From a phage: a stretch of 64,000 nt of DNA. Below are positions 10,991 to 48,467 of the stretch, piece after piece. Under the pieces are notes generated by a model, which saw nothing but the letters and a program-made list of their open reading frames with translations, had not been told where the DNA came from and searched no databases. Each line of letters begins with the position of its first letter. Positions within the stretch are counted from its first letter, which is position 1. Location: the sequence record PZ445524.1; one strand, written 5' to 3'. A program made the translations under genes and the position numbers.

Positions 10991-12409
10991 TTATGGATAG
11001 GTATAGATGATACCAGTTTCTAAAGCAGTTTTATGAATGATGTATCCATTACGCGATTCTTGGACATCAACTTCTGGATAATCTTTCATCATCTTCTGGA
11101 GAGTGTAACGATGCAAGTAGTACTTACTATCTGGATCGTCAGTTTTCCAATCTTTACCTTCTTCAGTCATTTTTTGGATTTCATCCATAACCCACCAACC
11201 GCACCAGATGTAAGCTGAGCTACGGTGTGGAAGAGGATGAACATAAGGTAATTCACCTTCTGGTTCTGGAGCAACTTTATCAGTTACCTGAACTTGACCT
11301 TCTGCCGTAATAGTTTTGCTATCATAATCAGTTGCTGTAACAGTTGCAGTAACTTCAATAGTTTGACTTCCAATAGATGAGGTATCAACGGTGTATACAT
11401 TAGTTGACCCTTCTACAGGAGAAGAATCTTTCTTCCATGAATACGCAATTTGCGCTTCTTCTGGAGCATTAGTGACATTAGCGGTAAATGTAGCCGAAGC
11501 ATCTTGTTGAACGTTAATAGAAGGAGGAGTCAATGTAACCTGTGGATTCATTGTCTTCTTATTAACCGTTAATGTTACTTCATTAGAAGTAACTTCCTTT
11601 TCATTGTAATTTTCAGCAGTTACTTGAGCTACACACTTGATTTTTTTAACTCCACTTGTAGTTGGAGTATAGCTAAATGTAGAGTTAGTTTCTCCACCAA
11701 CTTGTGAATCATCTACATACCACTGATACGTAGCAGACGCTCCATCAGGTTGAGAAGCTAAGGCAGCAGTAAATTGAACTGGGGTTCCAATTACTCCAGC
11801 TGAAGGACTATTAGGAGTTACTGCCAAGGTAGTCGTCTGTGTCTTTTTATTAACAGTCAGTGACACTTCATTAGAAGTAACTTCCTTTGCATCATAATCT
11901 GTCGCGGTTACTTGAGCCACACACTTAATTCTTTTTACCCCGCTTTCGGCAGGAGTGTAATTGAATGTAGCAGAAGTTGCTTCGCCCACAGGAGAACCGT
12001 CAACGTGCCATTGATACGTAGCAGATGCACCTGATGGCTGCGAAGCTAAAGTAGCGGTAAATTCAACAGCTGTTCCGATTACTCCTTCCGGAGGACTATC
12101 AGGAGTTACAGATAAAGTAGTTGTTTGTGTCTTATTTTGAACTGTGATAGTTGTAGTAGCTTCTGCTGTTTCAGCTTCAGCTTCTGGAACTGTATTTGTT
12201 GCAACTACTTTAATAGTCTTTTGACCGGCAGGTCCTTTTAGTACATAACTAAAAGTTGCTTCAGCTCCATCTTGTGGAACATCATCTACAGTCCAAGCAT
12301 ATGTAATAGGTCCATCTCCAGTTTGACCACTGGGTGTAGCAGTAAACTGCTGAGTCTGATCTATAACTCCAGTAGGTGTTTTAGGAGTTATATCAACTGT
12401 AAAAGCCAT
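10991..12409 (-). CDS. hoc: head outer capsid protein Hoc with four Ig-like domains
   Basis: 472 aa; N-terminus and C-terminal capsid-binding region match remembered T4 Hoc (376 aa), plus one extra 96-aa Ig-like unit. Confidence 0.9.
   Translation of the reverse strand: MAFTVDITPKTPTGVIDQTQQFTATPSGQTGDGPITYAWTVDDVPQDGAEATFSYVLKGPAGQKTIKVVATNTVPEAEAETAEATTTITVQNKTQTTTLSVTPDSPPEGVIGTAVEFTATLASQPSGASATYQWHVDGSPVGEATSATFNYTPAESGVKRIKCVAQVTATDYDAKEVTSNEVSLTVNKKTQTTTLAVTPNSPSAGVIGTPVQFTAALASQPDGASATYQWYVDDSQVGGETNSTFSYTPTTSGVKKIKCVAQVTAENYNEKEVTSNEVTLTVNKKTMNPQVTLTPPSINVQQDASATFTANVTNAPEEAQIAYSWKKDSSPVEGSTNVYTVDTSSIGSQTIEVTATVTATDYDSKTITAEGQVQVTDKVAPEPEGELPYVHPLPHRSSAYIWCGWWVMDEIQKMTEEGKDWKTDDPDSKYYLHRYTLQKMMKDYPEVDVQESRNGYIIHKTALETGIIYTYP
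11558..12133 (-). repeat. tandem duplication of a 288-bp Ig-like domain unit inside hoc
   Basis: aa 93-188 and 189-284 are about 80 percent identical (KTQTTTL...VKCVAQVTA...TLTVNK twice). Confidence 0.85.
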
Positions 12410-19358: not shown

Positions 19359-21127
19359 AAAAGCCACAAGAAATGCAAACGATGCGTAGAAAAGTTATTT
19401 CAGATAATAAACCAACACAGGAAGCGGCTAAATCCGCTTCCAATACTTTATCTGGACTTAATGATATATCTACGAAATTGGATGATGCTCAAGCTGCTTC
19501 TGAATTAATAGCTCAAACTGTTGAAGAAAAATCGAATGAAATAGTTGGAGCAATTGACAACGTAGAAAGCGCAGTGAGTGATACTACTGCCGGTTCTGAG
19601 TTAATTGCTGAAACTGTCGAAATTGGCAACAATATTAATAAAGAAATCGGTGAATCACTCGGAAGCAAATTAGATAAATTAACAAGTTTACTAGAGCAAA
19701 AAATTCAGACAGCTGGAATTCAACAGACTGGGACTAGTTTAGCCACAGTTGAAAGCGCTATTCCTGTTAAAGTCGTTGAGGATGATACTGCTGAATCTGT
19801 GGGTCCTTTATTACCAGCTCCCGAAGCAGTTAATAATGATCCTGACGCTGATTTTTTCCCTACCCCTCAACCAGTTGAACCCAAACAAGAATCACCAGAA
19901 GAAAAACAGAAAAAAGAAGCATTTAACTTAAAATTATCTCAAGCTTTAGATAAATTAACAAAGACAGTTGATTTTGGATTTAAGAAATCTATTTCAATTA
20001 CTGATAAAATATCAAGCATGCTATTTAAGTACACCGTCAGTGCTGCTATTGAAGCTGCTAAAATGACTGCAATGATATTGGCTGTTGTTGTTGGAATAGA
20101 CCTGTTGATGGTTCATTTTAAATACTGGTCAGATAAATTTTCACAAGCCTGGGATTTATTTAATACTGACTTTACTAAATTCTCTAGCGAAACCGGAACA
20201 TGGGGTCCTTTATTACAGAGCATCTTTGGTTCTATTGATAAAATTCAACAATTTTGGGAAAAGGGAGATTGGGGTGGATTGACAGCAGCTATCATAGAAG
20301 GACTCGGAAGTGTTCTTTTTAATTTAGGAGAGCTTATTCAATTAGGTATGGCTAAATTATCTGCTGCAATTCTTCGAGTCATTCCTGGCATGAAAGACAC
20401 TGCTGATGAAGTAGAAGGAAGAGCACTGGAAAATTTCCAAAATACTACTGGAGCATCTCTCAATAAAGAAGACCAGGAAAAAGTTGCAAATTATCAGTAC
20501 AAAAGAATGAATGGAGACCTTGGCCCGATAGCAAAAGGATTAGACAAAATTGCGAACTGGAAAACTCGTGCATCTAACTGGATTCGTGGTGTAGATAATA
20601 AAGAAGCACTAACAACTGATGAAGAGAGAGCAGAGGAAGAAGAAAAATTAAAGCAGCTTTCTCCAGAGGAAGCTAAAATTGCTTTAATGAAAGCTAATGA
20701 AGCTCGTGCTGCTATGAATCGTTTTGAAAAATATGCTGATTCAGCTGATATGAGTAAAGACTCAACGGTTAAATCTGTTGAATCTGCCTATGAAGACCTT
20801 AAAAAACGGATGGATGACCCGGATTTAAACAATTCACCGGCAGTTAAAAAAGAACTTGCTGCTAGATTTTCTAAAATTGATGCTACTTATCAAGAGCTCA
20901 AGAAAAATCAGCCTAATGCCAAACCTGAAACTTCTGCTAAATCGCCAGAAGCGAAACAGGTCCAGGTTATTGAAAAGAACAAAGCACAGCAAGCTCCTGT
21001 TCAGCAAGCATCTCCTTCAATCAGTAATACTAATAATGTTATTAAGAAAAATACTGTCGTTCATAATATGACACCTGTCACAAGCACAACTGCTCCTGGT
21101 GTATTTGATGCGACTGGAGTTAATTAA
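19355..21127 (+). CDS. 29: baseplate hub subunit and tail length determinator gp29
   Basis: 590 aa, T4 gp29 length. Confidence 0.92.
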   Translation: MKKPQEMQTMRRKVISDNKPTQEAAKSASNTLSGLNDISTKLDDAQAASELIAQTVEEKSNEIVGAIDNVESAVSDTTAGSELIAETVEIGNNINKEIGESLGSKLDKLTSLLEQKIQTAGIQQTGTSLATVESAIPVKVVEDDTAESVGPLLPAPEAVNNDPDADFFPTPQPVEPKQESPEEKQKKEAFNLKLSQALDKLTKTVDFGFKKSISITDKISSMLFKYTVSAAIEAAKMTAMILAVVVGIDLLMVHFKYWSDKFSQAWDLFNTDFTKFSSETGTWGPLLQSIFGSIDKIQQFWEKGDWGGLTAAIIEGLGSVLFNLGELIQLGMAKLSAAILRVIPGMKDTADEVEGRALENFQNTTGASLNKEDQEKVANYQYKRMNGDLGPIAKGLDKIANWKTRASNWIRGVDNKEALTTDEERAEEEEKLKQLSPEEAKIALMKANEARAAMNRFEKYADSADMSKDSTVKSVESAYEDLKKRMDDPDLNNSPAVKKELAARFSKIDATYQELKKNQPNAKPETSAKSPEAKQVQVIEKNKAQQAPVQQASPSISNTNNVIKKNTVVHNMTPVTSTTAPGVFDATGVN

Positions 21128-23195: not shown

Positions 23196-23198
23196 CAA

Positions 23199-23230
23199 TG
23201 GGGACCGAAAGGTCCCCATATTTTTATTTA
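23199..23230. terminator. bidirectional terminator between gene 54 and the convergent minus-strand ORF
   Basis: GGGGACC-GAAA-GGTCCCC hairpin flanked by T-runs. Confidence 0.8.
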
Positions 23231-23514
23231 CGGAATGAAATGAAAGCAGCAACTGAAGCAACTAAACTGTCTTCAATATAAACTTCAATTTTTACAGGAG
23301 CTTCTGACTCAAATTTACCTGTTACTACACCCTGAAAAATACTTTCAGTCTGTTCTGGCTTTGAAAAATTTTCAGAAGGAAAAATTCCGAACTTTTTATC
23401 TGTTCCAAAAATTTTAATAAATTCATCGTAAACTGCTTCATTAAAAGCATTATCAGCAGGAATAACGCCTTCAACTACAAGTTCTTGACCTAAAAAGCGC
23501 AAAGAAGATTTCAT
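23224..23514 (-). CDS. hypothetical early protein (T4 alt.-2 or alt.-3 position)
   Basis: 96 aa ORF with GAGGA RBS, directly downstream of an early promoter. Confidence 0.7.
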   Translation of the reverse strand: MKSSLRFLGQELVVEGVIPADNAFNEAVYDEFIKIFGTDKKFGIFPSENFSKPEQTESIFQGVVTGKFESEAPVKIEVYIEDSLVASVAAFISFRK

Positions 23515-23521
23515 TTTGTGT

Positions 23522-23575
23522 TCCTCATGTTATGTCAGTAAGACTACTATAACACAACACGAGGGACTTGTAAAC
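23522..23575 (-). repeat. 54-bp exact direct repeat, copy A (copy B at 36428..36481)
   Basis: identical 54 nt at both loci spanning -35, -10 and 5' leader. Confidence 0.9.
23546..23575 (-). promoter_or_regulatory. T4-type early promoter (copy A of the 54-bp repeat)
   Basis: minus strand GTTTAC, 18-nt spacer, TGtTATAGT, then GAGGA and ATG. Confidence 0.7.
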
Positions 23576-23931
23576 TACATTTTGAACTTTTTAGTACGCG
23601 GAATAGGCATGCGTCGATTTTATACTGTTTCATTGTTTGAAGAGCAGTATCAAAACAGCATTAATGACACCAATTGGATTTCCACCCAAGTTTCTAAGCT
23701 TAACCAGTGATAATTTCTCATTAACACCTATCATTACGATATGCATCATTTTATCGCCCGGCTTAACGTTTTATTCGTATCACCGCCAGAGGTGTATGTA
23801 CAAAATCTAAATCCAGGAAGCACACTTTCTTCACCGGCTTGAATAGCAAAAATTTGAGGTATTTTATGCTTAGGATTTAAGTTAACAACCGGCGCCGAAG
23901 CGCCGTCAAATAATTCTGTAATAAGTTCCAT
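23576..23931 (-). pseudogene. decayed duplicate of the alt 5' end; intact first 61 codons at 23746..23931
   Basis: 61-aa ORF MELITELFDGASAPVVNLNPKHKIPQIF... parallels Alt residues 2-60; downstream DNA still translates to GDKMMHIV...YKIDACM-like stretches with frame breaks. Confidence 0.75.
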
Positions 23932-23934
23932 GAT

Positions 23935-25986
23935 TTATCCTTGAACGAACTTGTAAGGCATGTTTGCAATATCTATGCAAGACGCAATAATTCCAAGAGA
24001 TGATTCTACTTTCTGTTTAACATTTGACGAAACAAATGATGCAAAGTCAACTCTGTCTTCTATATCACCTGTCATTGTAACCAATTCACCAGTTTCCATT
24101 AAATGGTCTCCGTCATAGATTACCGATTCGGTGAGTTCTTCTGTGGTCATAACTTCAGCTTGAATAAGCTTGTTGTTAGTTCTAACTGTTCCATCATTGT
24201 AAGATGCATCGGTTATTTTATTAACTTTGACCATTAATCCACGTGGCAAAATGACTTCCATTTCATTTGAAGGCGCTAAACTTCCACCGGGTAAAACAAC
24301 ATTGACTTTATCAGCCCCAGTAATAACCCATCCAATTCCAACTAAATTATCGCTAGAATTTACAAGTCCTTCATCAGTTTTATCAATAGAAACGCTTAAA
24401 CGCTTTTCGTCTGGTAAAACACCCACAGATGAATCAGTCATCCAAGTACCAAAAATATTTGGATATAATGATGTTGACACAAAGTTTCTAAAATAAAAAA
24501 CTCGATTTTTTACCATTGCTTCATATATTGAAGGTAACATTCGTTGTGAACGATACAAAGTAATACCTTTTGGTAATCGTTCACCATTTTTAAAGGCTGA
24601 ATCTAAATTATCAATGGCTTGTTCTATTTCAGGTGCTGTTAAAATACTTGTACGCTCATCTGGATTATATAATCCCAAAAGAGCATTATTCATGTCTACA
24701 TATCCTGAACCTACATATTCACGAATTCCGCGTTTTTGCGCTGGTGTGTATTTAGATGAATCTTTATTTTCGACTATAGGATGTAATGACCATCCAGCGG
24801 TAAGAGCATATCCACGTAATTCTCTTCGAATAATCTTTGTTTTTATTGCATTCCAAGAATTTTGTACTAACTCATTTGCAGCATCTTGGTTTAAATGCGA
24901 ATGTTTGTTAATATTTCTTTCAAACCAAGCACCTTTATATTTTTCTAAGGTATCATCGACGATAGAAGCAATAGTTTCTAAAGTTTTTATTGAAGTAATA
25001 GATTCTTTTTTTAATTTTTCTAAAGCTTTATTTTTTATTTCTGCATTAATAATGGATTCTTTATCTTCAGGAATTATAGAAGCTTCTCTGAATGCCATCC
25101 CAGCTGTAACACTACTAAGAGCATTCTCTAATGCAAATCCTGAAGTAGAAATAACAGTTAATTCATTAGCATCAGAAATTAAAGGAGCGTCAGCAGGTTT
25201 ATTTAATTCTGCTGCTGAAGCCTCAAATTTTTGAAACATCGGCGTTTCAAATCTAGAAGATTCCAACGACTGACTTTGTGCAATTGCTCTACGGGAAATT
25301 TTAACTTTAACGATTACAGCTTGGTCAGAACGTTTATCATTTTCTTGTGCAATAGATGCTGCAATTGCCTCATTTTTAGTTACTTGAGCTCCAGTATCTT
25401 TATTGATATAAACATCACCGACCTTCGATTCAACTTTAGTAAAGAGCTCGGTACTAATTTCCGGAACTCCTGGAATGTCTTCTAGTGATACATTTTTGCG
25501 ATGTATAAGAATATATGCATACTTTTTATCATAATCCCAGAGTTCCTTAAGAAGGACGTATCTGCCACCTGAACGACTACGGATAAGTCTATCAGCAATA
25601 ACTTGAATTTGTCGAGCTTGACCAGCAGTTTTAGACTTAAGAATACGAAGCATGCAGGCATCAATTTTATACTGACGCATTGTTTGCATTGCAACAGTAA
25701 AAACCGAATTGATATAATTAATTGGGCTTGGACCAAGACCTTTCAATTTAGCAATTGAACCTTTAGCAGTTAATGTAAAAGGAACAATATGCATCATTTT
25801 ATCGCCCATTTTTAAATCGCGATTAGTATCACCTCCAGATGTATAGGTACATAAACGAAAGCCTGGTTGTTCAATTGCATCATCAACATGAACTGAAAAA
25901 ATTTGCGGTATTTTCTTCTTTGGATGTAAGTTTGTAATTGGAAGAGTAGTATCTTCGTCAAATAATTCTGTAATAAGTTCCATCAT
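23935..25986 (-). CDS. alt: Alt ADP-ribosyltransferase (packaged, modifies host RNA polymerase)
   Basis: 683 aa ORF (682 aa from second Met); T4 Alt length and position; late promoter at 26008. Confidence 0.9.
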   Translation of the reverse strand: MMELITELFDEDTTLPITNLHPKKKIPQIFSVHVDDAIEQPGFRLCTYTSGGDTNRDLKMGDKMMHIVPFTLTAKGSIAKLKGLGPSPINYINSVFTVAMQTMRQYKIDACMLRILKSKTAGQARQIQVIADRLIRSRSGGRYVLLKELWDYDKKYAYILIHRKNVSLEDIPGVPEISTELFTKVESKVGDVYINKDTGAQVTKNEAIAASIAQENDKRSDQAVIVKVKISRRAIAQSQSLESSRFETPMFQKFEASAAELNKPADAPLISDANELTVISTSGFALENALSSVTAGMAFREASIIPEDKESIINAEIKNKALEKLKKESITSIKTLETIASIVDDTLEKYKGAWFERNINKHSHLNQDAANELVQNSWNAIKTKIIRRELRGYALTAGWSLHPIVENKDSSKYTPAQKRGIREYVGSGYVDMNNALLGLYNPDERTSILTAPEIEQAIDNLDSAFKNGERLPKGITLYRSQRMLPSIYEAMVKNRVFYFRNFVSTSLYPNIFGTWMTDSSVGVLPDEKRLSVSIDKTDEGLVNSSDNLVGIGWVITGADKVNVVLPGGSLAPSNEMEVILPRGLMVKVNKITDASYNDGTVRTNNKLIQAEVMTTEELTESVIYDGDHLMETGELVTMTGDIEDRVDFASFVSSNVKQKVESSLGIIASCIDIANMPYKFVQG

Positions 25987-30395: not shown

Positions 30396-30728
30396 TTATT
30401 TTACTACTTTCCAATGCTGCATGTCAAGTTTACCAACTTTTTTCATCTTCTCAATTAAGCGTTCGGCACGTTGGCGAGCTGTAACATAATGCCATTCGCC
30501 TAATTCATTTTGTTCAATTTTTCCAACGATTACTGTATTCAATTCATAAATCCAACTAGTAAAGAAATTATGAACTTGAATTGTAAAGGTGAAATCTGTT
30601 CCCATACCTTCTGTTGTTTCTACTTCAATGATATCACCTTCAACTGCCATTAAGAACCACATAGTTTCATTATATTTACCATTGAAGCATTTAGTTTTAA
30701 CTGTAGCGTTCAGATTAATCGTTTTCAT
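30396..30728 (-). CDS. hypothetical protein (30.x cluster)
   Basis: 110 aa ORF preceded by early promoter 30756..30785. Confidence 0.7.
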   Translation of the reverse strand: MKTINLNATVKTKCFNGKYNETMWFLMAVEGDIIEVETTEGMGTDFTFTIQVHNFFTSWIYELNTVIVGKIEQNELGEWHYVTARQRAERLIEKMKKVGKLDMQHWKVVK

Positions 30729-30755
30729 TTTATTCTCCTTTGTTTGTGTAAGATA

Positions 30756-30785
30756 ATACTATCACAAAGGAGCTATACTGTAAAC
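30756..30785 (-). promoter_or_regulatory. T4-type early promoter
   Basis: GTTTAC, 18-nt spacer, TGaTAGTAT, then AAAGGAGAATAAAATG. Confidence 0.65.
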
Positions 30786-35576: not shown

Positions 35577-35926
35577 TTAGAAAGGTCCTGGATGTCTTCT
35601 GCGAACTTGTTGAAGGAGTTGTTGATTTGTTTTTCAACCAATCCTGGCTTATGAGCCACCACATCCGCCTTCTTTGCATCTTTGCGCAGTTTTTCATTTT
35701 CACGCTCAATAGCAGCAATTGCCTCACGATTTTTAGTATTCATCGCATCAATATAATTATACTGAATTCGCAAATTATTTAATGCTAAGGCGTTTTCATT
35801 GGCCGTTTTTGTAATTTCTACAACAGACGTTTCTAATCTTTCAATTTTATTTTTTAAAATTAAAGAAGTTCCGCCTAATGCAATTACAATTAATAGCAAA
35901 CCTGCTGTCGTATTACTTAATTGCAT
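35573..35926 (-). CDS. inner-membrane spanin (T4 pseT.3 position)
   Basis: 117 aa; N-terminal transmembrane helix followed by coiled-coil region. Confidence 0.75.
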   Translation of the reverse strand: MQLSNTTAGLLLIVIALGGTSLILKNKIERLETSVVEITKTANENALALNNLRIQYNYIDAMNTKNREAIAAIERENEKLRKDAKKADVVAHKPGLVEKQINNSFNKFAEDIQDLSK

Positions 35927-36423
35927 AAAGTTTTAATAACCTCTATAATATCGTCTTGAGAAAGACCGTTAATTAAAATATGATGTTCAGCTGGAGATTT
36001 AGAAATTTTAAAGCATGCCGCAACATCTTCTGCCATATCTGATGCACTACGATTTGGATTACTAATTCCAAGACGATGCTTTCCAGTCAAAGGATTGACG
36101 ATGATATAGCATTTGCAGCTATTGATATGAACATTAGGTTGAGTCTGATTAATGAATACTTCGCACTCATACTTAGCGAGTTGATTTTCTAAAAAGACTT
36201 TCATCTCTTCAACCGCATCAGGAAGCATATCACGGGCTTGCTCAAGACGACGATTTCGATATTCTTTAATGGTCGTTTTCCGCTTGACTTGCTTAGCTAA
36301 ATCTTTCTTAAGATCAGTGATATATCCAACTCGACGATTTCCTTTGAATACAGAAATCCCATCTGTAGTATCACCGTATGCTTCAACGACCATTTCAGTA
36401 GTAATAAGTTGTAAATCCATCAT
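35917..36423 (-). CDS. alc: Alc host transcription shutoff protein
   Basis: 168 aa ORF (167 from second Met); T4 position between pseT.3 and rnlA. Confidence 0.8.
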   Translation of the reverse strand: MMDLQLITTEMVVEAYGDTTDGISVFKGNRRVGYITDLKKDLAKQVKRKTTIKEYRNRRLEQARDMLPDAVEEMKVFLENQLAKYECEVFINQTQPNVHINSCKCYIIVNPLTGKHRLGISNPNRSASDMAEDVAACFKISKSPAEHHILINGLSQDDIIEVIKTLCN

Positions 36424-36427
36424 AAAG

Positions 36428-36481
36428 TCCTCATGTTATGTCAGTAAGACTACTATAACACAACACGAGGGACTTGTAAAC
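36428..36481 (-). repeat. 54-bp exact direct repeat, copy B
   Basis: identical to 23522..23575. Confidence 0.9.
36452..36481 (-). promoter_or_regulatory. T4-type early promoter upstream of alc (copy B of the 54-bp repeat)
   Basis: identical to 23546..23575. Confidence 0.7.
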
Positions 36482-36484
36482 AGC

Positions 36485-38072
<1,588 letters not shown>

Positions 38073-47485: not shown

Positions 47486-47713
47486 TTATTTTTGGATTAA
47501 GCCCATATAAAATTTAGCATCTTCAGGATACATGCCATCACAATACTCATTGGTCATAAAACTAATAAGGTCTTCAAGAGGACCTTGGACTTCAATTTGA
47601 ATACTAAAGAATTGGGTGTCTTTAATGTAAGCCATACTCAAAGAAGGATAACGATTGCGGATAACTTCGTAAGTGTATTCAAAATCAACAATATCAATAT
47701 TAACCTTAGCCAT
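47486..47713 (-). CDS. small protein, paralog of 48197..48424
   Basis: 75 aa from ATG 47713 ([13 protein letters not shown]...NEYCDGM), about 50 percent identical to the other copy. Confidence 0.7.
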
Positions 47714-47742
47714 TTTATTTTCCTCATGTAGTTGATAGGGTA

Positions 47743-47772
47743 ATAGTATCACACTACTACCCTACTGTAAAC
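47743..47772 (-). promoter_or_regulatory. T4-type early promoter
   Basis: GTTTAC, 18-nt spacer, TGaTACTAT, then TATCAACTACATGAGGAAAATAAAATG. Confidence 0.65.
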
Positions 47773-48196: not shown

Positions 48197-48424
48197 TTAC
48201 TGTTCAATAAATCCTGTGTAAAATTCTACATCTTCAGCATCCATACCGTCGCAGTATTCATTAACCATAAACTGTTTAAGACGATTTAAAGGACCTTCAA
48301 TAACAACTGAAACATTACAATTAGGATCATTTAGTGCGCTTATGATACTAAGTTCAGGATAACGATTACGAATAATTTCTTCAATATATTCAAAATCAAC
48401 AACATCAATATCAATTTTAGCCAT
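48197..48424 (-). CDS. small protein, paralog of 47486..47713
   Basis: 75 aa ([13 protein letters not shown]...NEYCDGM). Confidence 0.7.
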
Positions 48425-48467
48425 ATTATTTTCCTCTTTAATTATCAGCAGTATTGCCGATAGTTGT

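Follow-up and report, generated by a model that had tools for sequence, protein, structure and literature searches.

An early-promoter cassette with a predicted hairpin over the Shine-Dalgarno sequence is present in two identical copies upstream of alt.-3 and alc in a T4-like phage

Background

Phage T4 serves as the reference for how phages time the expression of their genes. Among its relatives, intergenic cassettes known as PeSLs combine a sigma-70-like early promoter, a stem-loop and a Shine-Dalgarno (SD) sequence with start codon, as set out in the text of two papers (PMC2839356; PMC4122927). The promoter of the T4/PST PeSL is given in the same texts as TTTACW-N17-TAYWAT, and the stem-loop is placed between the -35 and -10 elements or overlapping the -10 in that of PMC2839356. 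According to both texts PeSLs recombine with one another, and a terminator or attenuator role has been proposed for them.

A second class of T4 elements hides ribosome binding sites. For genes e, soc, 49 and I-TevI, long RNAs from upstream promoters hold a helix that sequesters the SD and/or the AUG, and a promoter within the region of the 5' arm gives a shorter RNA in which the ribosome binding site is free (PMC3014915).

The DNA analysed here is a stretch of 64 kb (64,000 nt of record PZ445524.1; hereafter the window) from a Tequatrovirus with about 98% identity to T4. It carries one 54-nt promoter-leader cassette twice, upstream of alt.-3 and of alc. The alc product terminates transcription on cytosine DNA (PMC2988021); alt.-3 is nonessential, and mutants with a C-terminal extension of its product escape the CmdTAC defence (PMC11618068). 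With a probability of roughly 60% we read the element as a PeSL-type early-promoter cassette whose hairpin would mask the SD in read-through RNA, and which would be ancestral at alc and have been copied to alt.-3 at the base of Tequatrovirus.

The repeated cassette

An earlier note on this DNA had described two identical 54-bp cassettes 12.9 kb apart, and both coordinates and identity are borne out by realignment and search. The 54-mer, which reads GTTTACAAGTCCCTCGTGTTGTGTTATAGTAGTCTTACTGACATAACATGAGGA on the functional minus strand, occurs exactly twice in the window. The copies agree at 54/54 positions, no third match is found at up to 3 mismatches, and no match arises in 100 shuffles of the window. 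Among exact dispersed repeats in the window, none is longer than this pair and no other reaches such a size. Similarity runs from the G of GTTTAC to the last A of GAGGA, with sharp borders and flanks at chance level. Nor is the 54-mer, as might have been the case, present at early promoters generally: other early-promoter-like cassettes of the window have 16-40 of 54 positions in common with it or with one another. All genes at both loci lie on the minus strand, and the ORFs directly downstream of the two copies correspond to T4 alt.-3 and alc. The features are as follows.

23224-23514, minus strand: alt.-3 ORF, 96 aa (ORF list; Alt.-3 in the T4 annotation)
23522-23575, minus strand: cassette copy A, 54 nt from -35 to SD, upstream of alt.-3; exact match to copy B
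23522-23526, minus strand: SD of copy A, GAGGA (sequence)
23523-23540, minus strand: 3' arm of the copy A hairpin, element nt 36-53, leader with the GAGG of the SD
about 23539 (an A), minus strand: predicted +1 of copy A, placed from the -10 spacing alone
23545-23564, minus strand: 5' arm of the copy A hairpin, element nt 12-31, covering spacer, TGn and -10 (MFE and centroid)
23546-23554, minus strand: extended -10 of copy A, TGT plus TATAGT (promoter scan and sequence)
23569-23575, minus strand: -35 of copy A, GTTTACA, in which TTTACA aligns with TTGACA (promoter scan)
23746-23931, minus strand: alt.-1 remnant, upstream of copy A and after alt
23935-25986, minus strand: alt, upstream of copy A
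35917-36423, minus strand: alc ORF, 168 aa from the first ATG of ATGATG; 97-100% identity to Tequatrovirus Alc by tblastn
36428-36481, minus strand: cassette copy B, 54 nt, upstream of alc; its -35 begins 3 nt after the rnlA stop
36428-36432, minus strand: SD of copy B, GAGGA
36429-36446, minus strand: 3' arm of the copy B hairpin, including the SD (predicted fold)
about 36445, minus strand: predicted +1 of copy B, from spacing
36451-36470, minus strand: 5' arm of the copy B hairpin (predicted fold)
36452-36460, minus strand: extended -10 of copy B, TGT plus TATAGT (promoter scan)
36475-36481, minus strand: -35 of copy B, GTTTACA (promoter scan)
36485-37645, minus strand: rnlA (gene 63), upstream of copy B; a read-through RNA would hold the whole hairpin

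The earlier description as an early sigma-70-type promoter with a leader extending to the SD is in agreement with the promoter scan, which returns TTTACA-17-TATAGT with TG before the second hexamer at both sites, a layout that recurs in 30 T4 cassettes. From upstream to downstream the element consists of the -35 GTTTACA, a 17-bp spacer, TGT-TATAGT, a predicted start about 7 nt further on (A37) and an 18-nt leader that ends in GAGGA; it has the -35, TGn and -10 of the T4 early promoters (PMC2988021) and a start region (CTTAC...) that is conserved in other early promoters of the window. GAGGA occupies element nt 50-54, with 4-7 nt to the ATG at alc and 8 nt at alt.-3. The sequence upstream of the -35 is A/T-rich at both sites (AAAAATTATAAAAAATTTAT... 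and ACTAAAAAGTTCAAAATGTA) and at alc constitutes the coding 3' end of rnlA. The alc copy is labelled 'predicted early promoter' in one GenBank Tequatrovirus record; start-site (5'-end) data for the alc and alt.-3 promoters were not found in the literature searched.

Two details concern the genes themselves. Gene alc starts with ATGATG (36418-36423), the first ATG lying 4 nt and the second 7 nt after GAGGA; the T4 annotation uses the second (36420), and the 168-aa reading of alc probably exceeds the true gene by one codon. Genes 54 and alt.-3 converge, and in the gap between them a bidirectional terminator-like hairpin (23198-23219, ATGGGGACCGAAAGGTCCCCAT) has T-runs on both strands, and alt.-3 transcripts are expected to end there.

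The two 54-mers are plausible in principle as a substrate for recombination. The 12.9 kb between them hold genes that are in part essential, and a deletion from one copy to the other would remove alt, 30 (DNA ligase), 31, rIII, cd, pseT and alc. T4 genetics has established 30 and 31 as essential, and such deletions should therefore be lethal. No relative with one fused copy was found; the 999 places in 500 records (see below) leave one record with a single place.

A hairpin across promoter and leader

The spacer and -10 half of the element (nt 12-31) is an inverted repeat of the leader and SD half (nt 36-53). Folded as RNA, the 54-mer gives an 18-bp interrupted hairpin, in which nt 12-25 pair with 40-53 and nt 28-31 with 36-39. 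Its energy is -22 kcal/mol, whereas shuffles average -8.7 and none of 200 is as stable (z = -5.39). The earlier note had suspected an RNA-level element but had not seen this hairpin. Its 3' arm takes in the GAGG of the SD, and these four bases are all paired in the MFE structure. The hairpin persists in read-through contexts of 121-175 nt at both loci, and in the alc context the stem is extended to -24.4 kcal/mol. The ensemble probability of an unpaired SD in the read-through RNA is 0.002 at alc and 0.19 at alt.-3. RNA beginning at the predicted +1 (A37) does not contain the 5' arm, and its local structure amounts to -1.8 to -2.2 kcal/mol (to +30; first 48 nt). In the alt.-3 own transcript with 60 nt of coding sequence the SD lies in a weak 5-bp helix (GAGGA/UCUUC), which makes unpaired probabilities ambiguous for alt.-3; own-transcript structure is for this reason given as energies.

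These predictions suggest the following course of events. Polymerase arriving from upstream (from rnlA into alc; from alt, alt.-1 and alt.-2 into alt.-3) would transcribe both arms, the read-through RNA would form the 18-bp hairpin at about -22 to -24 kcal/mol with the SD buried, and the downstream gene would be poorly translated from such middle or late transcripts. RNA initiated at the promoter within the cassette would start in the loop or the 3' arm and would be without the 5' arm, the -10 being part of the 5' arm and the predicted +1 part of the 3' arm; its SD would be essentially unstructured (about -2 kcal/mol). With the SD masked in read-through RNA only, translation of alc, and in Tequatrovirus of alt.-3, would be tied to the immediate-early burst from its own promoter. 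The hairpin may also attenuate upstream transcripts or stabilise their 3' ends, as proposed for PeSLs.

It is unlikely that such an effect on rnlA and alt is the main one, that is, that the stem-loop is an attenuator, terminator or 3'-end stabiliser with SD masking as a secondary matter. An RB49 PeSL stem-loop inserted between a promoter and lacZ lowered expression to an extent similar to that of the rrnB T1 terminator, in the experiment described in the text of PMC2839356, and the hairpin here does lie at the end of the upstream gene, the rnlA stop being 3 nt before the -35. However, no U-tract follows the stem (ACUUUAUGAUG and AACACAAAAUG in the window; A-rich sequence in other genera). The terminator scan is silent at both cassettes, yet it calls canonical terminators nearby. 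The 3' arm, moreover, ends exactly on the SD in 8 lineages (see below), which termination alone does not need. No Rfam covariance model reached its gathering score anywhere in the window. Cleavage of the SD by RegB was considered and set aside, as the Tequatrovirus SD at these sites is GAGGA and contains no GGAG.

Conservation and divergence in Tequatrovirus

Within GenBank the 54-mer was found at 999 places in 500 phage records, about two per genome across the T4 genus. Recent copying, proposed in the earlier note, has to be given up on this count, and with it a recent duplication in this phage, as two copies are present in about 500 relatives. Both copies occur in essentially every sequenced Tequatrovirus and the duplication is therefore old; from this distribution we infer that it dates to about the base of the genus.

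For closer comparison both loci were recovered from 11 genomes or metagenome assemblies, the window included; IMG/VR searches with Alc and Alt.-3 supplied 5 loci each and one metagenome pattern scan 10 loci. The two copies are identical in 2 of the 11, one of them being the window, and differ at 1-4 positions in the others; in T4 there is one difference, G40A in the alt.-3 copy. Variants are mostly locus-specific, e.g. T27C at alc and G29A together with G32A at alt.-3, which indicates, as far as the sequences go, independent descent of two old paralogues with occasional conversion at most. An ongoing gene conversion that keeps the copies identical within each genome is quite unlikely. Two cases resemble it, namely vB_ECOLIGBLB0003 with G16A and T27C in both copies and one metagenomic alc copy with the G32A otherwise typical of alt.-3 copies, but the low number of identical pairs does not, and the mostly locus-specific variants have the pattern of orthologous independent descent. 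Concerted evolution in its strict form was rejected, with copies that differ in 9/11 genomes, mostly by locus-specific variants.

Nucleotide diversity is 0.032 and 0.046 in the cassettes against 0.019-0.048 in adjacent coding sequence. Exceptional purifying selection on the 54-mer is accordingly not supported, diversity being no lower than in the flanks. Thus the suggestion in the earlier note of strong selection on an RNA-level element is upheld for the element, by the strong hairpin, and lacks support for selection as the cause of the identity. The identity in the window would simply reflect that both copies retain the genus consensus, and no special selection is needed.

Several of the Tequatrovirus variants fall on paired positions. 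Pair 15-50 passes from C-G through U.G to U-A, G16.U49 is replaced by A-U and U25.G40 by U-A; four variants break a hairpin pair. Covariation within Tequatrovirus is not significant, with one compensatory pair and 95 of 500 shuffles reaching the observed value.

The cassette upstream of alc in other genera

The regions upstream of alc were compared in 12 further lineages. The architecture of Tequatrovirus recurs in seven of them: in Dhakavirus, Roskildevirus, Gelderlandvirus, Karamvirus, phage Ursula, Jiaodavirus and Winklervirus (with Tequatrovirus, 8 Tevenvirinae lineages) GTTTACA is followed by a spacer that holds the 5' arm, a loop that holds the -10, and a 3' arm with the SD. The stem sequences differ by lineage and covary, for example TCTCCGTTTAGTT/AACTAAACGGAGA and TCCTCATCAGAG/CTGATGAGGA. 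Kanagawavirus and Tegunavirus have a -10-centred hairpin that ends before the SD, Mosigvirus has a short spacer hairpin only, pairing in Marfavirus is weak, and 44RR (Biquartavirus) has a local hairpin at the SD only. The Ac42 alc upstream region has no GTTTAC promoter or comparable hairpin, and vB_EcoM_RZ (Gaprivervirus) carries between rnlA and alc an additional ORF of 267 nt with an alc-like annotation, and no early promoter directly upstream of alc. 44RR and Ac42 are the two most distant phages compared. From this distribution we infer that the hairpin design is ancestral at alc.

Alignment of the alc cassettes of the 8 lineages with MAFFT and RNAalifold gave no consensus structure, because the 3' arms stand in different registers. 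A test of own against cross-lineage arm duplexes and a pair table indexed on the spacer were used in its place. Duplexes between the two arms of one lineage average -17.7 kcal/mol and those between arms of different lineages -9.8 (permutation p = 5e-5). Double-sided changes occur at 14 of 16 spacer positions, in a table that is built on each sequence's own MFE and in which Karamvirus and Ursula are close relatives.

Strand preference of the fold differs between Tequatrovirus and the other genera. In Tequatrovirus the sense MFE is -24.4 kcal/mol and the antisense MFE -15.4, the 9 kcal/mol being due to three G.U pairs, which favours action of the predicted hairpin at the RNA rather than the DNA level there. 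In the other genera sense and antisense alc folds are about equal, and most stems are perfect Watson-Crick duplexes. The latter could suit an inverted repeat that works as DNA, either by adjusting promoter opening through a cruciform or hairpin or by mobilising cassettes as a hot spot of recombination; recombination between PeSLs has been seen in experiments, by the text of PMC2839356, and cassette exchange between alc and alt.-3 is evident (see below). A DNA-level role of this kind is nevertheless very unlikely. Apart from the strand difference in Tequatrovirus, natural variants pass through U.G intermediates, and G.U or U.G pairs are typical of RNA and unfavourable for a cruciform. The SD within one arm is also without an obvious rationale at the DNA level.

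Other early promoters of the window and of T4

In about 147 of the 169 kb of T4, the 54-mer has only its two copies, even at 12 mismatches. The same 147 kb contain the 30 early-promoter cassettes referred to above, each directly before an SD and ORF, and many of these cassettes have a hairpin that encloses the -10. Strong hairpins that include the SD precede motB.2 (8218), regB (62797), denV (65413), nrdC.8 (53943), 30.8 (130310) and a small ORF of the ndd region (166807). The promoter and leader of one cassette fold at -14.4 kcal/mol, chimeras of different cassettes at -9.5 (p < 5e-5). The SD is fully paired to the promoter arm in 9 of 30 real cassettes and in 25-27% of chimeras, and is thus not enriched, because pyrimidine-rich spacer starts pair with any SD. 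Among the T4 cassettes, it is only the predicted folding energy that is specific.

Near-identical cassettes are not restricted to alc and alt.-3. Families of this kind in T4 (AF158101) are found at 20612/57990, 53943/166807, 2458/50973 and 55384/146875, so that the alc/alt.-3 pair stands at the far end of a general pattern. Between dmd and mobD.2 (20612/57990), both arms of the stem have changed, CTGACAAGACT..AGTCTTGTCGG versus TTGACAAGATT..AATCTTGTCAA.

Within the window, the minus-strand cassette at 30726-30785, upstream of a 110-aa ORF (T4 30.8), is of the same design and unrelated sequence, and is the one seen in T4 at 130310. Pairing of its spacer, CTCCTTTGTG, with the leader, CACAAACAAAGGAG, would bury the SD (-14.6 kcal/mol, z = -3.2). 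Three further minus-strand cassettes, with -35 elements at 47771, 47482 and 33804, have strong -10-centred hairpins (z of -3.0 to -4.4) that end just before the SD; the inverted repeat enclosing the -10 is therefore a general feature and not one specific to alc.

Two other repeats of the window may be recorded. One, of 92 nt and 82% identity (47634-47725 and 48345-48436, minus-strand genes), covers the ribosome binding sites and 5' ends of two 75-aa ORFs, each with an early-promoter cassette to itself; the two are probably small paralogues in the frd-32 interval. The other consists of two tandem 288-nt units, 75% identical, at 11552-12127 in the late structural gene region.

Taken as a whole, could the pair be a plain duplication of a promoter, its identity due to ancestry and to constraint on promoter and SD, with an incidental hairpin and no function as RNA? 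The equal diversity of cassettes and flanks, the non-significant covariation within the genus, the alt.-3 genes of other genera, which have no such hairpin, and the frequent pairing of the SD with a pyrimidine-rich spacer in chimeric cassettes are all in its favour. An 18-bp stem with z = -5.4 is, however, not a chance expectation, eight alc lineages keep the geometry with different stems, and T4-wide the own promoter and leader fold 5 kcal/mol better than chimeras. This explanation is accordingly considered improbable.

Exchange between alc and alt.-3

The alt.-3 genes of Jiaodavirus, Karamvirus, Dhakavirus and Mosigvirus each have their own early promoter, and the cassette is of another type: its hairpin is short and lies within the spacer (e.g. 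CGCCAAGGATGGTG, Dhakavirus), and the SD is not masked. An alc-type cassette at alt.-3 is seen only in Tequatrovirus among the genera compared, and the Tequatrovirus ancestor probably copied the alc cassette to alt.-3. The hairpin at alt.-3 may have come along as a passenger of this copying. An exchange seems to have taken place elsewhere too. Of 14 positions in the Mosigvirus (Shf125875) alc spacer AACACCAAGGATGG, 13 agree with the Dhakavirus (Bp7) alt.-3 spacer. The Tequatrovirus 5' arm CCTCGTGTTGTG would pair almost perfectly with the 3' leader of Mosigvirus alc, CAACAACACGAGG, as if that leader had been left behind when its own 5' arm was replaced. These sequences are most simply read as an exchange of entire promoter-leader cassettes between alc and alt.-3, in both directions.

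On the preferred reading of the pair in the window, a copy of the alc cassette would have taken the place of the cassette then present at alt.-3 in the ancestor of Tequatrovirus, through recombination or gene conversion that began and ended within the -35 and SD motifs. As these motifs are common to all cassettes, end points of this kind would account for the abrupt limits of identity. Since then, both copies would have drifted slowly and mostly independently, this phage keeping the consensus at both.

The surroundings of copy A have a history of their own. As in T4, copy A lies between a decayed alt paralogue (alt.-1/alt.-2) and alt.-3, and in many relatives, among them T6, PP01, P8, BLB0003 and Bp7, the alt.-1 position is occupied by a full-length second alt, of about 2.06 kb in these five. 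The TAG stop of the second alt gene in those relatives overlaps the first G of the cassette. In the window, a 31-nt repeat (97% identity; 23904-23934 and 25956-25986) marks the starts of alt.-1 and alt, which we take to be the known partial duplication of alt. No ORF of alt.-2 size, at 40 aa or more, was seen in the window in the 23576-23931 region.

Implications

For the window alone the finding is an ordinary one: the sequence belongs to a well-studied group of T4 relatives, and both promoters are conserved across the genus. If the hairpin works as proposed, immediate-early genes would follow a protein-free rule by which the promoter of origin decides on translation, and the confinement of Alc synthesis to the first minutes of infection would in part be explained. 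We advance tentatively, as a possibility that goes beyond the two copies, that anti-SD hairpins embedded in early promoters are a conserved device of translational insulation in Tevenvirinae. Immediate-early genes (alc, and probably regB, denV, 30.8 and motB.2) would be translated only from RNA of their own promoters, later read-through would be silent, and the cassettes would hop by gene conversion. No description of an early-promoter version of ribosome binding site masking, or of the alc/alt.-3 identity, was found in the literature searched, the main T4 genome review aside. For the engineering of T4-like phages and for promoter annotation, a spacer sequence constrained by the leader is to be expected.

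Comparison with described systems

In comparison with PeSLs, as the text of PMC2839356 and PMC4122927 describes them, the alc and alt.-3 cassettes have the same parts, i.e. an early promoter, a stem-loop that encloses the -10, and the SD and start codon at the 3' end. They are likewise repeated (two per genome) and linked to insertions, deletions and exchanges, here the border of the alt paralogue and the swaps between alc and alt.-3, and the sharp ends of identity at the -35 and the SD fit an exchange between PeSL cassettes as these papers' text presents it. There are also differences. In the T4/PST PeSL of PMC4122927 the stem-loop, in the part of the text that deals with it, stands just upstream of the promoter and is treated as a terminator, whereas here the stem encloses the -10, the 3' arm takes up the SD and a U-tract is absent. 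Unlike the shuffled ORFan genes associated with PeSLs in these texts, the DNA flanked by the present copies is 12.9 kb of partly essential genes. The text of PMC2839356 and PMC4122927, figures aside, contains no mention of the alc/alt.-3 pair or of SD masking. PeSL cassettes may thus be more than units of terminator plus promoter, and the case of alc and alt.-3 documents the exchange of a whole promoter-leader cassette between two fixed loci in different genera.

The comparison with e, soc, 49 and I-TevI concerns function. As in these genes, the SD is predicted to be paired in read-through RNA, and the proximal promoter to start inside the hairpin. In the described class, however, the internal promoter is a late one (TATAAATA) and expression is delayed, whereas here it is an early sigma-70 promoter and the predicted outcome is the mirror image. 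On the folding models the cassette would work like the class of e, soc, 49 and I-TevI, of which, as described in PMC3014915, it is not a member.
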